Sequence record: SRR22947725_824
Reading direction: 5' to 3' (one strand)
DNA: 33,669 nt
Shown: positions 993 through 5,519 of the stretch, in pieces
Layout of the letters: each line of letters begins with the position of its first letter
Numbering within the stretch: position 1 is the stretch's first letter
The notes under the pieces: model-generated
Told to the model about the DNA's origin: nothing
Databases searched by the model: none
What the model saw: the letters and a program-made list of their open reading frames with translations, nothing else
Made by a program: the position numbers and the translations under genes

Positions 993-1625
993 ATGCCAAT
1001 TTATAAAAGTTATAGCCCTAATTCTTCCACATGTATTAAAGTTTGGAAAATTTCTGAAAGTTTCAATGAATTATTATCTTCCGTAGACATAAGCAAAAAC
1101 ACTATAGAAAAATTAGATAAAGTTCAAAGTGATGTTAAAAAATGTGAAATTTTAAGTGTTAGACACCTTTTAAAAGAATTTGGATTTTCTGATAATGATC
1201 TCTTTTACAATGAAAATGGTAAACCAATGTTGTCAAACAAAAAACACATTTCGATAAGTCACTCAAAATTATTTTCATCAATTATTATTAGTGACTTTAA
1301 TATTTCAATTGATATTGAAAAAGTAAGTGATAAGATCGCTAAAGTTTCTAGTAAGTTTATTGATTATGAATATTCATTTCTTGGAGATTTAAACAACGAA
1401 CTAGAAAGGCTTACCTTAATTTGGTGTGTTAAAGAATGTATTTATAAAATATCAAACGAAAAACTACCTTTTATTTTCAAAAGTAATTGTATTGTTACCC
1501 CGTTTAATTTACAAGATAGCTCAGTAATTTCTTGGCTAAAATTTAATGGAACTATACTTTCTTTTAAATCTTATCTTCATAGTTTTGAAGATTATAAACT
1601 AGTATATTTAATCCAAAATAAATAA
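993..1625 (+). CDS. 4'-phosphopantetheinyl transferase (Sfp/ACPS superfamily)
   Basis: Motifs NGKP, ISISHS, (G/S)IDIE and WCVKECIYK (WxxKE). Confidence 0.85.
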   Translation: MPIYKSYSPNSSTCIKVWKISESFNELLSSVDISKNTIEKLDKVQSDVKKCEILSVRHLLKEFGFSDNDLFYNENGKPMLSNKKHISISHSKLFSSIIISDFNISIDIEKVSDKIAKVSSKFIDYEYSFLGDLNNELERLTLIWCVKECIYKISNEKLPFIFKSNCIVTPFNLQDSSVISWLKFNGTILSFKSYLHSFEDYKLVYLIQNK

Positions 1626-2242
1626 TGGGCAGCATAGTTGATTTTTTTATAGAATCCTACTCCAGCACATCATATTTAATGATAATTCTTGAAATAATTG
1701 CATTCTTATTTGGAATTATTAGTGTTGTCTATGCCAAAAAAGAAAATATTTTGGTTTATCCCACAGGGATTATTTGCACAGTTATTACCGTTTATATTTT
1801 ATTTAAAGCTCAATATTTTGGTGATATGATGATGAATATTTATTATTCATCGATGAGTATTTATGGATGGTGGAACTGGACAAGATACAAAAATGATAAT
1901 ACTAGAATTGTAATCACATATGCCAATTATAGAGAAAGAATAATTGCCAGCTTATTTTTTTTAATTACAATTGTCATAACGTATTCCGTTTATTTAATGA
2001 ATAGCTCAATAATTTATATAGAAAATTATATTGACATCTTCACATCTGGAATATTTTTTGTAGCAATGTGGTTTATGGCTAATAAAAAAATAGAAAGTTG
2101 GGTTTTTTGGATAGTTGGTGATTTAATTACAATACCTTTGTATGCTTACAGAGGATTAGGTATGTTATCTCTACAATATTTAATTTTTACAATTTTAGCA
2201 ATTCAAGGATATAATCAATGGAAAAAGAGCTTAGTCAAGTAA
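1625..2242 (+). CDS. pnuC: PnuC-family vitamin transporter (nicotinamide riboside/thiamine type)
   Basis: About 7 hydrophobic segments; YGWWNW (WxxW), KKIESWVFWIVGD and C-terminal GYNQWKK; lies next to a NadR-type kinase. Confidence 0.9.
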   Translation: MGSIVDFFIESYSSTSYLMIILEIIAFLFGIISVVYAKKENILVYPTGIICTVITVYILFKAQYFGDMMMNIYYSSMSIYGWWNWTRYKNDNTRIVITYANYRERIIASLFFLITIVITYSVYLMNSSIIYIENYIDIFTSGIFFVAMWFMANKKIESWVFWIVGDLITIPLYAYRGLGMLSLQYLIFTILAIQGYNQWKKSLVK

Positions 2243-2790
2243 AATCAAGTTGTATTAAAGTTGTTTTATTTGGGCCGGAGTCTACAGGGAAGACTACTCT
2301 CTCAAGACAATTAGCTAGACATTATAATTCGGTTTGGGTTAGAGAGTTTGCAAGACAGTACTTACAAAATAAGTGGAACAATCAAAGAAAGACTTGTGAA
2401 CCATCAGATTTAATTCCGATTGCAAGAGGTCAAATTAAGCTAGAGAACGAATTAGCATCTAAAGCTAACAAGGTTTTAATTTGTGACACAGATTTATTGG
2501 AGACTAAAGTATATTCTGAGGCTTATTATATTGGTAGTTGTGACCCAACACTTGAAAAATATGCAATTGAAAACTCTTACGACCTTTACTTACTTACTTA
2601 CATAGATATTCCATGGGAGGCAGATGATTTAAGAGATAAGCCAAAACAAAGAGAAGAGATGTTTAACGCTTTTGAATCTGAATTAAAAAAATACAACAAA
2701 CCTTATGTAATATTAAAAGGAGATAAGGAAACCAGATTGAAAGAAGCAATTAATTTAATTGATAAATTAATTATAAATAATCCCGAATAA
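2218..2790 (+). CDS. NadR-like P-loop kinase (ribosylnicotinamide kinase domain only, AAA_28-like)
   Basis: Walker A GPESTGKTT, EFARQYL, ICDTD and PWEADDLRD; no HTH or adenylyltransferase domain. Confidence 0.85.
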   Translation: MEKELSQVKSSCIKVVLFGPESTGKTTLSRQLARHYNSVWVREFARQYLQNKWNNQRKTCEPSDLIPIARGQIKLENELASKANKVLICDTDLLETKVYSEAYYIGSCDPTLEKYAIENSYDLYLLTYIDIPWEADDLRDKPKQREEMFNAFESELKKYNKPYVILKGDKETRLKEAINLIDKLIINNPE

Positions 2791-2815
2791 TTTTTTTAGA
2801 ATAAAAATTACTCAA

Positions 2816-2823
2816 TACATTTG
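2816..2823 (+). promoter_or_regulatory. -7 promoter element (TACATTTG) driving the riboswitch leader
   Basis: Exact TAnnTTTG ending 8 nt before the 5' strand of aptamer P1, as expected for a TSS just upstream of the aptamer. Confidence 0.7.
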
Positions 2824-2831
2824 TTATGTCT

Positions 2832-2901
2832 CAAAAGGGGTGCTTTACAGCTGAGATTATACCCATTGAACCTAGAACAGATAATGCTGTTTAGGAATTT
2901 G
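2832..2901 (+). ncRNA. TPP (THI-box) family riboswitch aptamer, variant in the pyrophosphate-sensing arm
   Basis: GGGGUGC...GCUGAGA-UUAU-ACCC...GAACCU...AUAAUG...UAGG. P1 CAAA/UUUG, P2 GGG/CCC, P3 GCU/AGC and P5 ACAG/CUGU with an AUAAUG loop; sits directly upstream of a TonB receptor. Confidence 0.9.
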
Positions 2902-2962
2902 TATCAAACCATTAATTATACAAAAATAATTGACCCCTTTTTATTTGATAATATTTTATCAT

Positions 2963-5086
2963 ATGAAAAATCTATTATTTAACTTATCATTTATTTTAAC
3001 ATTTTCACTTTTTTCTCAAGAAATCAAACAAGATACAACTAGGGTACAAAACCTAGAGGAGGTTATTGTCTCCTCTATTCGGGTGAAACAAAATGCACCT
3101 ATAGCTTTTACCAATGTTTCAAAGGGTGAGTTGGGTAAAAAGAACCTTGGTCAAGATTTACCTATTTTACTTAATTCTTTAACTTCAGTAGTTACTACAT
3201 CTGATGCTGGAGCTGGAGTAGGATATACAGGTATTAGAATTAGAGGAATAAATGCACAATCAACTAATATAACAATAAATGGCATTCCATATAATGATGC
3301 AGAGTCTTTGGGTACATATTGGGTAGATTTACCTGATTTTGCCTCTTCAGTTGAAAATCTTCAAGTACAACGAGGAGTTGGAACATCCACAAACGGTTCT
3401 AGTGCCTTTGGAGCTAGTATTAATATACTAACAGATTTAATTTCAAAAAACTCTTACTTTGAAAACTCTAACTCAGTCGGTAGCTACAATACTATTAAAA
3501 ACACCTTTAAATTCAGTACAGGAATACTTAATGATTATTTTGAATTTTCTGGTAGACTTTCTAAAATAGATTCAGATGGCTATATTGATAGATCTAGTTC
3601 TGATTTAAAATCCTATTTTTTACAATTAAACTACAAAAAAGAAAATACGTTAATAAAGGCTTTAAGTTTTGGTGGTCATGAAATAACTTATCAAGCTTGG
3701 AATGGAATTGATGGAGAAACACTTCAAAGTGATAGAACTTATAATCCTTCTGGAATGTATGTAGATCAATCTGGTAATATTCAATTTTATGACAATGAAG
3801 TTGATAATTATAAACAAGATCACTACCAAATACATTGGAGTCAAATTATAAACACTAGACTAACTTCAAATTTATCATTTAACATAACTAATGGCCTTGG
3901 TTATTATGAGCAATATAAAGAAAATGATAATCAAGATTATGTAACAAGAAAGTGGCTAGATAATCAATTTATAGTTGGAAACTATTCTTTAAATTATCAA
4001 GACAATAAAGTAAATATGAATTTTGGTTCTTCTTATAGTCAGTACGATGGAGATCATTTTGGAAAAGTAATTTGGGCTCAAAACACACCCGGAATCCAAA
4101 TAGATGATCGTTTTTATGATGGTAACGGAATTAAAAAAGACTTTAGTAATTATATCAAAACCACATATCAGTTAAATTCTAAATTACTATTATATGGTGA
4201 TATTCAATTTAGAAATATTAACTATAGTACAACAGGAAGCACATCTGAAATTGCTAACTTTTTAATAAACAAAAAGTATAATTTTTTTAATCCCAAGGGA
4301 GGATTAAATTACCTATTTAATAATCATAATAGGTTGTACTTTTCTTTTGCAAGATCAAATCGTGAACCTACAAGAAGTGATTATGAAAGTAATCCTAATA
4401 TAAGATCAGAACAATTAAATGACTTTGAAATTGGTTGGAATCTCACTAAGAAAAACGTTAATTTAACCACTAATTTTTATATGATGCAATATAAAGATCA
4501 GCTAGTTTTAACAGGTTCCATTGATGATGTTGGATCCCCTGTTAGAGAAAACAGTGGAGAAAGTTATCGAGTTGGTTTAGAACTAGAAACAGTTTTTAAT
4601 TTATCTGATAAAGTTTCTCTGCAAGCTAATTCGGCTTTTAGTGATAATAAAAACAAAAATTTTGTAACATCTATTGATGGAGAGTTAGTAAATCTTGGAA
4701 AAACTAATATATCTTTTTCACCAGAAATAGTATCCTCGGTAAATTTATCGTACTCGCCTAAAGAAAACATGGTTTTATCTATATTAAATAAATATGTTGG
4801 TGAGCAATATATGAGTAATACAGATTCTCTATTTTCAAAACTAGATGCTTACTCAGTCATTGATTTTAATTTTAATTATAATTTTAAAAACACTTTTTTC
4901 TTTTCTGAAATAGTATTATCAGGTGTTATTAGTAATTTGTTTGGAGCTGAATATGTGTCTAATGGATATTATTATACATATGATGATACTTGGAGTGATC
5001 CTAATAGTATAACAACAATTGAAGGGACAGGATACTATCCTCAAGCTACAAGGAACTATATGCTAGGATTAAAATTTAAATTATAG
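2963..5086 (+). CDS. TonB-dependent outer-membrane receptor, probable thiamine/vitamin B1-vitamer uptake
   Basis: Signal peptide from ATG 2963 (MKNLLFNLSFILTFSLFSQ), TonB-box-like LEEVIVSS, plug SDAGAGVGYTGIRIRG...NGIPYNDAES...VQRGVGTSTNG, C-terminal YYPQATRNYMLGLKFKL; TPP-type riboswitch in the leader. Confidence 0.9.
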   Translation: MKNLLFNLSFILTFSLFSQEIKQDTTRVQNLEEVIVSSIRVKQNAPIAFTNVSKGELGKKNLGQDLPILLNSLTSVVTTSDAGAGVGYTGIRIRGINAQSTNITINGIPYNDAESLGTYWVDLPDFASSVENLQVQRGVGTSTNGSSAFGASINILTDLISKNSYFENSNSVGSYNTIKNTFKFSTGILNDYFEFSGRLSKIDSDGYIDRSSSDLKSYFLQLNYKKENTLIKALSFGGHEITYQAWNGIDGETLQSDRTYNPSGMYVDQSGNIQFYDNEVDNYKQDHYQIHWSQIINTRLTSNLSFNITNGLGYYEQYKENDNQDYVTRKWLDNQFIVGNYSLNYQDNKVNMNFGSSYSQYDGDHFGKVIWAQNTPGIQIDDRFYDGNGIKKDFSNYIKTTYQLNSKLLLYGDIQFRNINYSTTGSTSEIANFLINKKYNFFNPKGGLNYLFNNHNRLYFSFARSNREPTRSDYESNPNIRSEQLNDFEIGWNLTKKNVNLTTNFYMMQYKDQLVLTGSIDDVGSPVRENSGESYRVGLELETVFNLSDKVSLQANSAFSDNKNKNFVTSIDGELVNLGKTNISFSPEIVSSVNLSYSPKENMVLSILNKYVGEQYMSNTDSLFSKLDAYSVIDFNFNYNFKNTFFFSEIVLSGVISNLFGAEYVSNGYYYTYDDTWSDPNSITTIEGTGYYPQATRNYMLGLKFKL

Positions 5087-5087
5087 A

Positions 5088-5519
5088 TTAAAAATTAGAA
5101 ATAAAAAGGTTGCTGCCATTTATTTCTACTCTATAAGCTTTCAGACCGCATTCTAGAGCTACTGTTAAAGACTGACCTGTGATAAGACTGTAAGAGTTTT
5201 CTTCAGGACAATTGCTTACACATTCTAATCCATTAATAGTCATAGTTGAACAGCTAGTAGGTATTCGGTTCGGGTCACTAGCATCCCAAGCTAAGTATCC
5301 TGTGCCAGAATTTGTGACTATAATACCCCCATTTCCAATATTAGGAATATAAACTGAGTTACTAATAAAGTTTAATTGGTTATACTGTGGTAGATTGAGG
5401 TTGATTTCATAATTAACTTCAATATTTGCCAAATATCTGCAGTTGGATGAAATTTCATCTTTTTTACATGTAAATATCGTTAATACAACAAATATTAAAA
5501 TGATTGATATTTTTTTCAT
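5088..5519 (-). CDS. Lipoprotein with a degenerate Rieske-like domain (conserved flavobacterial hypothetical)
   Basis: Lipobox IFT-C18 followed by KKDE; GNGGIIV, AWDASDPNR, C...C-x3-C...YSLITGQ and LKAYRV resemble a Rieske-type fold. Confidence 0.6.
   Translation of the reverse strand: MKKISIILIFVVLTIFTCKKDEISSNCRYLANIEVNYEINLNLPQYNQLNFISNSVYIPNIGNGGIIVTNSGTGYLAWDASDPNRIPTSCSTMTINGLECVSNCPEENSYSLITGQSLTVALECGLKAYRVEINGSNLFISNF

Follow-up and report, generated by a model that had tools for sequence, protein, structure and literature searches.

Variants of the thiamine pyrophosphate (TPP) riboswitch are the described systems closest to the element reported here, a TPP-family aptamer upstream of a TonB-dependent outer-membrane receptor gene in a stretch of DNA of 33,669 nt from sequence record SRR22947725_824 (the window, by which we mean this whole stretch). 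According to the available passages of McCown et al. 2017 (RNA 23:995), many TPP riboswitch variants are mutated in the pyrophosphate core, a result given there as Roth et al., in preparation; these variants bind thiamin about as well as thiamine monophosphate (TMP) and TPP, and variants mutated in P4-P5 occur in many bacteria, at times beside others in one genome. Compared with those passages, the aptamer in the window is likewise mutated in the P4-P5 pyrophosphate core, and its form, which we call the collapsed arm, coexists with the canonical form in two genomes of relatives (G098 and G024). The preliminary description of this DNA had left open whether such a variant was already described: it is mentioned as work in preparation in the part of McCown et al. 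2017 available, and our full-text literature searches returned no full description of pyrophosphate-core TPP variants. The passages searched of later papers from the same laboratory do not mention them, and Rfam 15 holds no separate family for the variant.

In Bacteroides thetaiotaomicron, the OMthi and pnuT riboswitches repress translation upon thiamine, with a response at about 100 nM versus 10 nM for the biosynthesis riboswitch (Costliow, Degnan and Vanderpool, bioRxiv 10.1101/867226, in the sections available). Like the OMthi riboswitch in those sections, the element in the window is a TPP-family element directly before a TonB-dependent receptor. The Bacteroides riboswitches were found with RF00059, the Rfam TPP family, and their P4-P5 arm is not discussed in the sections seen; according to these, B. 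thetaiotaomicron aptamers lie <5 nt from the start codon, whereas the distance in the window is 65 nt and includes a conserved hairpin. The riboswitch for hydroxymethylpyrimidine pyrophosphate (HMP-PP; thiS motif; Atilho et al. 2019, eLife) is, as we propose for the element in the window, a thiamine-pathway switch that senses a ligand other than TPP, but it is an unrelated, much smaller aptamer inside a terminator, and a permissive Rfam scan of 2700-3050 gave no match to the thiS motif.

At gathering thresholds, a default scan of the whole window gave no Rfam match anywhere. In the permissive scan of 2700-3050 with Infernal, positions 2826-2914 (+) align end to end with RF00059 (model positions 1-105; 51.1 bits, E 2.5e-9), accompanied by two chance-level matches and nothing else. 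The gathering score of RF00059 is 54.3 bits, and a standard scan therefore reports nothing; a match of 51.1 bits is far beyond chance all the same and, judged by its E-value and full-length alignment, reflects homology to RF00059. The parts of the aptamer are as follows.

2826..2914 (+), TPP-family aptamer, collapsed-arm variant; RF00059 at 51.1 bits, and variant model R1 (see below) at 85.4 bits for 2823-2911
2832-2835 with 2898-2901 (+), P1
2837-2839 with 2862-2864 (+), P2, plus the pair U2841-A2859; GGG/CCC, normal
2842-2844 with 2849-2851 (+), P3; G2842-C2851, C2843-G2850 and U2844-A2849
2851-2856 (+), J3/2 (CUGAGA), with UGAGA at 2852-2856
2871..2895 (+), P4-P5 arm without internal loop, from sequence, arm lengths and covariation
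2871-2873 with 2893-2895 (+), P4; C2871-G2895, C2872-G2894 and U2873-A2893
A2874, or G2875 in the other register (+), one-base bulge in the arm
2875-2880 with 2887-2892 (+), extended P5; G2875.U2892, A2876-U2891, A2877-U2890, C2878-G2889, A2879-U2888 and G2880-C2887
2881-2886 (+), L5, AUAAUG

The pyrimidine-sensing helix is complete, with P2, P3 and a J3/2 that reads CUGAGA; GGGG at 2837-2840 has its partner CCC at 2862-2864. The pyrophosphate-sensing arm departs from the family. The Rfam consensus and 20 canonical aptamers of relatives, on which the comparison is based, show a GAU...CG(U/A) loop, but in the window P4 and P5 are not split by a J4/5 GAU and J5/4 CG loop. Read directly, 2871-2895 make up a nine-pair helix that has a single bulged base and ends in the loop AUAAUG; Infernal aligns 'GA' with the J4/5 consensus AU and a lone U with the CG of J5/4. 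The preliminary description, whose coordinates were all correct on a sequence check, is borne out in its account of a canonical pyrimidine half with retained L5 (the alignment to RF00059 runs the full length) and of near-continuous pairing of 2871-2880 with 2887-2895. It had further reported J4/5 GAU and J5/4 GCG as absent, which holds for the internal loop but not for the J4/5 G, kept as G2875 here and in all 57 variants aligned below. Its listing of AGGAA as a change of the variant had to be given up: many variants have AGGGA, and the canonical aptamers L011, L014 and L019 have AGGAA.

With canonical RF00059 members the element shares the P1-P5 layout, GGGGUGC, CUGAGA, ACCC, a UAAU-type L5 and a place in the leader of a thiamine-related transport gene. 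Unlike them, it has pairs in place of the J4/5-J5/4 loop, an arm of 24-25 instead of 26-28 nt and no CG(U/A)AGG, and most variant members score below the gathering threshold. It is nonetheless a clear derivative of the TPP family, despite falling short of the score threshold and lacking the pyrophosphate loop. P3 in the window's genus has 2-3 bp and a 4-nt loop, among the shortest in this set; it is equally short in two canonical relatives (L012 and L014), and L5, which normally docks on P3, is conserved despite the short P3 in this genus.

Conservation and distribution of the collapsed arm

Of 101 related genomes sampled, 88 have a match to RF00059 at E <= 0.01, compared with only 27 above the cut-off. 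Many B1 receptors of Flavobacteria therefore go unrecognised, and studies of B1 traffic in the sea and the gut use RF00059 at this curated threshold. The nearest genome (G001; 1.3 Mb, 75% complete), with which the window has 81% of sampled words in common, contains exactly one TPP-family match, which is the same element at 51.9 bits. Within the window's genus, one TPP-family match each was found in 7 of 9 genomes (49.6-54.8 bits); the two genomes without a match are 58% complete.

The aptamer set comprised 30 loci returned and 60 more fetched. A pattern search by regular expression parsed 78 aptamers, the window included, and missed 13 of the first 90 loci, which were read by eye; a covariance model built from 57 variant sequences (R1) found all of them. 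Measured from CCU to AGG, the arms of the 78 parsed aptamers fall into two groups with nothing between: 58 are collapsed (24 nt in 33 and 25 nt in 25) and 20 are canonical (26 nt in 18, 27 nt in one and 28 nt in one). CG(U/A)AGG is present in 20/20 canonical arms and 0/58 collapsed arms, and the full GAU...CG(U/A)AGG loop in all long arms but one (L024). The collapsed arms take two forms, CCU-G-(5 nt)-GUAAUG-(5 nt)-A-AGG with a single G.A mismatch, and the form of the window, CCU(A/G)GAACAG-(A/G)UAAUG-CUGUUUAGG with a one-base bulge; L5 is conserved among them as (A/G)UAAUG. Further collapsed arms were recognised by eye, with P4 as CUU/AAG (L074, L065 and L088) or CCA/UGG (L060). The dedicated model R1 separates the variant cleanly: all 91 sources have a match, and 61 matches score 67-91 bits, with L024 at 62 and all others at <=54.

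In the alignment of the 57 variants, GGGG, UG, CUGAGAU, ACCC and GAACCU are invariant, and column 76, the former J4/5 G that corresponds to G2875, is G in 57/57, opposite A in 30 and U in 27. In the arm helix, 93.8% of cells are paired, by several pair types at columns 77-92 (AU 30, GC 18, CG 4, GU 3, other 2), 78-91 (AU 26, GC 21, CG 6, UA 3, GU 1) and 80-89 (AU 38, GC 12, GU 5, UA 2). For the structure as a whole, covariation scores 0.251, whereas shuffles average 0.112; 0/500 shuffles reach 0.251, a count that does not equal a probability since the aligned variants are related. When partners were slid by one to three columns, covariation was <=0.117; these slid controls and the number of pair types argue for a real arm helix. 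The positions of the former J4/5 and J5/4 now show covariation of the Watson-Crick type.

That the element is a TPP riboswitch in decay or wrongly assembled, and binds nothing, would agree with an Rfam score under the gathering threshold and with a whole-leader fold that is not significantly more stable than its shuffles (z = -1.68 for the single sequence). We regard this as highly improbable, since 7/9 genus genomes have the same architecture (the two without a match are 58% complete), as do dozens of other genera, where compensatory changes are seen; the promoter motif and the leader hairpin described below are conserved as well, and contigs from several marine RNA libraries contain the stretch. 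By comparative criteria, the element is real, conserved and functional. The earlier argument that changes which preserve pairing speak against decay is strengthened by the order-wide arm, the compensatory changes, the clean split by arm length and R1 and the tie to TonB receptors, and the outcome named then as its refutation, substitutions unique to one genome, is contradicted by the 58/78 collapsed aptamers in the relatives' set.

A phylum sample of 151 genomes was scanned with R1, with >=65 bits taken as a collapsed arm. Collapsed arms were found in 12/12 Flavobacteriales and in 9/24 genomes labelled 'same class'; among the remaining genomes, the lower-scoring best matches that were inspected are canonical 26-nt arms. 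The collapsed arm seems to be derived and to have been maintained by selection since it arose; its distribution probably marks an order-wide natural change of riboswitch specificity. The exception among the long arms, L024 (genome G075), is an intermediate aptamer before a TonB receptor; its 26-nt arm keeps GCG on the 3' side and has GCU for GAU on the 5' side, and its R1 score lies between the groups.

The receptor gene and the ligand

The gene behind the aptamer lies at the following position.

2963..5086 (+), TonB-dependent outer-membrane receptor, 707 aa from ATG, with a signal-peptide-like N-terminus; Plug 2.7e-10, TonB_dep_Rec_b-barrel 9.2e-22

It begins 65 nt downstream of the aptamer, which thus occupies the location of a thiamine-gene leader element; NCBIfam gives the receptor no specific name. 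For the gene association, the first open reading frame (ORF) behind each aptamer was scanned against Pfam. Behind collapsed-arm aptamers, this is a Plug-domain TonB receptor in 53/55 cases, and the other two (L050 and L057) are short ORFs without a family. The 16 ORFs behind canonical arms encode 12 ThiC, one phosphomethylpyrimidine-kinase-like (ThiD-like), two PnuC-like and one Plug protein, the last at L024. In genome G098, thiC (L003) and a pnuC-like gene (L035) each follow a canonical aptamer, while a TonB receptor gene (L078) follows a collapsed one; a single cell therefore contains both forms and keeps them separate. In genome G024, L013 and L047 are canonical and L075 is the variant. 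Such coexistence does not apply to the window's genus, where a genome has just one TPP-family match. With many sequences available, and canonical relatives in the same genomes, the question of specificity can be put directly to standard binding assays.

We propose, with a probability of roughly 60%, that this is a repressing switch on a B1 receptor which reads the thiamine pool without phosphate discrimination. On this reading, which draws on sequence comparison, the aptamer would be a TPP-family riboswitch at the 5' end of its own transcript that controls a TonB receptor for vitamin B1. Both the pyrimidine-sensor half (P2, P3 and J3/2 CUGAGA) and L5 are kept, and binding of the aminopyrimidine part of thiamine compounds, within the usual two-arm shape, is therefore expected; the untouched pocket likewise leads us to expect a ligand of the thiamine type. 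The preliminary description had also put forward nicotinamide riboside or nicotinamide mononucleotide as ligands to try, which are less likely given that every nucleotide of the aminopyrimidine pocket is invariant. In the P4-P5 arm, the Mg-pyrophosphate loop would have been replaced by pairs, leaving an invariant G opposite A/U or a one-base bulge. In the 2006 thiM and thiC structures, two J5/4 positions reportedly contact the pyrophosphate, and the nucleotides that we take to hold Mg-pyrophosphate in the canonical structures are absent from the variant except for one G. We infer that phosphate discrimination is relaxed: TPP would not be strongly preferred over TMP and thiamine, and the RNA would read the total cytoplasmic thiamine pool. 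If this is true, a very common riboswitch has lost one half of its binding site but not its fold, and has thereby come to measure something else.

A possible alternative, which we hold to be tentative, is that the variant still selects TPP and recognises the pyrophosphate differently, for example through metal ions at the G.A/G.U site or in the neighbouring major groove; a lower affinity might in addition mean that the importer is shut off at a higher threshold than biosynthesis. This would fit the invariance of G2875 (57/57, facing A in 30 and U in 27), the tight conservation of arm length and L5, which is expected if the arm must reach the ligand, and the standing of TPP as end product and usual signal; the J5/4 positions named above as contacting the pyrophosphate, on the other hand, have no counterpart in the collapsed arm. 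Threshold tuning is a known theme, as Bacteroides transport riboswitches need about tenfold more thiamine (Costliow et al., in the sections available), but the variants mutated in this region hardly discriminate between thiamin, TMP and TPP according to the passages of McCown et al. 2017.

Promoter, leader and proposed switching

Three further features frame the aptamer.

2816..2823 (+), promoter motif of the Bacteroidetes -7 type (consensus TAnnTTTG); read from the sequence
2924..2946 (+), leader hairpin, the proposed switching element; stem 2924-2929 / 2941-2946, with CCCC in the loop at 2934-2937
2946..2965 (+), small hairpin abutting the start codon ATG (2963-2965); 2946-2951 with 2956-2961, in predicted folds only

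TAnnTTTG ends 11-17 nt before GGGG in 52/58 variant loci, compared with 0/58 control windows inside the downstream ORF. With this promoter-like motif just before P1, the transcript is therefore predicted to start a few bases before P1, independent of upstream genes. Positions 2933-2941 in the leader hairpin are complementary to 2833-2841, AAAAGGGGU, the 5' side of P1/P2, and an unconstrained fold pairs 2834-2843 with 2933-2942. The motif CCYC(U/C)U is present in 41/53 variant leaders, in 39 of which it is enclosed by a stem of >=4 pairs; the stem mostly ends 14-23 nt before AUG. The stems vary while pairing is kept, with AAAUAA/UUAUUU in the window and GAAUAA/UUAUUC, UUCAAA/UUUGAA and CGAG/CUCG elsewhere.

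Under the proposed mechanism, a high thiamine pool would cause the aptamer to lock the AAAAGGGG segment into P1/P2, and the leader would refold around the start codon; when the pool is low, the AAAAGGGG segment would pair with the C-rich loop of the leader hairpin, and the start region would stay open. The net effect would be an OFF switch for the importer through repression of translation, which we propose by analogy with the Bacteroides receptor riboswitch. Both this direction of switching and the pseudoknot by which it would work are what we infer from the leader. Simple attenuation was dropped, as a scan of 2650-3100 found no terminator-like site on the + strand. A plain sequestering hairpin at the start is unsupported, since equilibrium folding was unchanged over 53 leaders; enforcing the aptamer lowered start accessibility by >0.05 in 4 of them and raised it in 5.

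Several observations weigh against a repressing, phosphate-blind switch. The C-loop motif is missing from 12/53 leaders, and the mean unpaired fraction of the start region in equilibrium folding (n=53) is 0.42 with the aptamer enforced and 0.42 otherwise; since folding shows no change in accessibility, the switching mechanism rests on the pseudoknot, which is beyond the folding program. The opposite polarity, in which the ligand turns expression on, may also be compatible with the sequence alone. P1 is paired in just 44.6% of cells in a fixed register; the register seems to shift, and some members seem to carry an inserted hairpin. The invariant former J4/5 G may hold a metal-phosphate contact, in which case TPP selectivity would be reduced, not lost. 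The main text of McCown et al. 2017 gives, as far as available, no sequences, taxa or genes for its variants, and their identity with the collapsed-arm class is our presumption.

Finally, the collapsed arm is not required for control of the receptor: unlike the window, the receptor leaders sampled in other lineages of the phylum have canonical 26-nt arms, with 19 canonical aptamers preceding Plug-domain receptors (L110, L113-L116, L118, L119, L123-L125, L127-L129, L131, L133, L136 and L138-L140). Control of the receptor by a TPP riboswitch is therefore older and wider than the collapsed arm. The earlier suggestion that the altered sensor suits an importer retains the association with TonB receptors (53/55) but loses its force as something special, as canonical aptamers precede the same kind of receptor elsewhere.

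Contigs of four marine RNA runs cover 2300-3500, one of them as a single piece; such libraries may also contain DNA. In the marine RNA runs X1, X2, X4 and X13, many short contigs of high word depth match 2850-2897 only and continue into unlike flanks, as from other organisms that have the core nearly letter for letter. The short contigs show conservation of the core among marine relatives, not transcript ends or levels.

Thiamine metabolism and neighbouring genes

Thiamine metabolism was surveyed in five genomes of the window's genus (G001, G002, G004, G008 and G009), which are 72-85% complete.

ThiL (TMP kinase), in 5/5 genus genomes, above the curated cut-off
ThiC, in 0/5 genus genomes
ThiE (TMP-TENI), in 0/5 genus genomes
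Thiamine pyrophosphokinase (TPK), in 0/5 genus genomes

With ThiL present and ThiC, ThiE and TPK not found in these genomes, import of thiamine or TMP is therefore needed, with passage through TMP. By its gene content, the genus appears strictly auxotrophic for thiamine or TMP, with no enzyme known to phosphorylate thiamine; this poses the question how, and by which kinase, imported thiamine is converted to TMP. In such cells, the total supply would be reported by a sensor that does not distinguish thiamine, TMP and TPP. Bacteroidota clusters without any described system for B1 synthesis or transport are reported in a marine study, in the part available.

These results also bear on whether the ligand could be an aminopyrimidine compound without a pyrophosphate, imported by the receptor, such as hydroxymethylpyrimidine (HMP), aminomethylpyrimidine (AmMP), formylaminopyrimidine (FAMP) or another B1 breakdown product. 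We consider this unlikely. Such a ligand would agree with an intact pyrimidine pocket beside a lost phosphate pocket, and in the parts available, marine studies refer to this receptor type as omr1 and treat its substrate as unclear (PMC12442306), and bacterioplankton are reported to use B1 vitamers (PMC10881298). However, ThiC and ThiE were not found in the five genomes, and pyrimidine precursors, from which no thiamine would be made, are therefore of no use to the genus; a ligand that touches the other arm only would leave the conservation of the P4-P5 arm and L5 unexplained, and thiamin is the compound named in the passages of McCown et al. 2017. The earlier proposal of phosphate-insensitive sensing is in keeping with those passages as far as loss of discrimination goes, whereas its HMP-type precursor has become less likely with ThiC and ThiE in 0/5 and ThiL in 5/5 genomes. 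As a whole, that interpretation is partly supported and matches the brief published remark.

TPK was found in 11/101 relatives and in 76/151 genomes of the phylum sample. The idea that loss of the pocket tracks loss of TPK did not give a clean picture, as the variant occurs together with TPK in 7 genomes of a single Flavobacteriaceae genus. Two genes upstream of the promoter motif in the window, identified with Pfam/NCBIfam, are not under the riboswitch.

1625-2242 (+), PnuC-like transporter
2218-2790 (+), AAA_28 kinase resembling the NadR ribosylnicotinamide-kinase domain

This pair is found no more than 3 kb upstream of the aptamer, on the same strand, in the window and in 24/46 loci of other genera, from six families (L037, L039-L041, L044, L045, L049, L053, L058, L059, L063, L064, L066, L067, L070, L073, L077, L079-L081, L083, L085, L089 and L090). 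A TPK match was found in 0/24 pair-bearing genomes, and 5/22 pair-less loci are in TPK-positive genomes. The PnuC-like protein of the window is 29% identical to the PnuC-like proteins behind canonical TPP riboswitches, which are 58% identical among themselves. The pair may be a nicotinamide riboside uptake system in conserved synteny, or it may supply the inner-membrane and trapping steps of a thiamine route that does without TPK; plainly unrelated housekeeping genes are also conserved beside it.

The second possibility belongs to a more far-reaching proposal, which we regard as doubtful: the collapsed-arm aptamers would form a separate riboswitch class that senses thiamine, or thiamine, TMP and TPP summed, with a loop-to-5'-strand pseudoknot, within a TPK-independent B1 salvage in Flavobacteriales. 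In such a salvage route, the TonB receptor would carry thiamine across the outer membrane and the neighbouring PnuC-like protein across the inner membrane, the neighbouring NadR-like AAA_28 kinase would trap it as TMP, and ThiL would then make TPP. If this is true, thiamine and TMP are obligatory intermediates, and a phosphate-blind sensor would measure what the importer delivers.

At 5088-5519 (-), an ORF of 143 aa runs convergently towards the receptor gene; its product has a lipoprotein-like N-terminus and several cysteines and is matched by no Pfam or NCBIfam family. In many Flavobacteriaceae, a gene of about 515 aa with DUF4301 as its only domain lies between the AAA_28 kinase and an RF-1/ArfB-like gene (L040:3556-5112 (-) and equivalents). 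It has no NCBIfam name and is absent at the corresponding position in the window, and in L085:3535-5715 (-) it is fused to the kinase in a protein of 726 aa.

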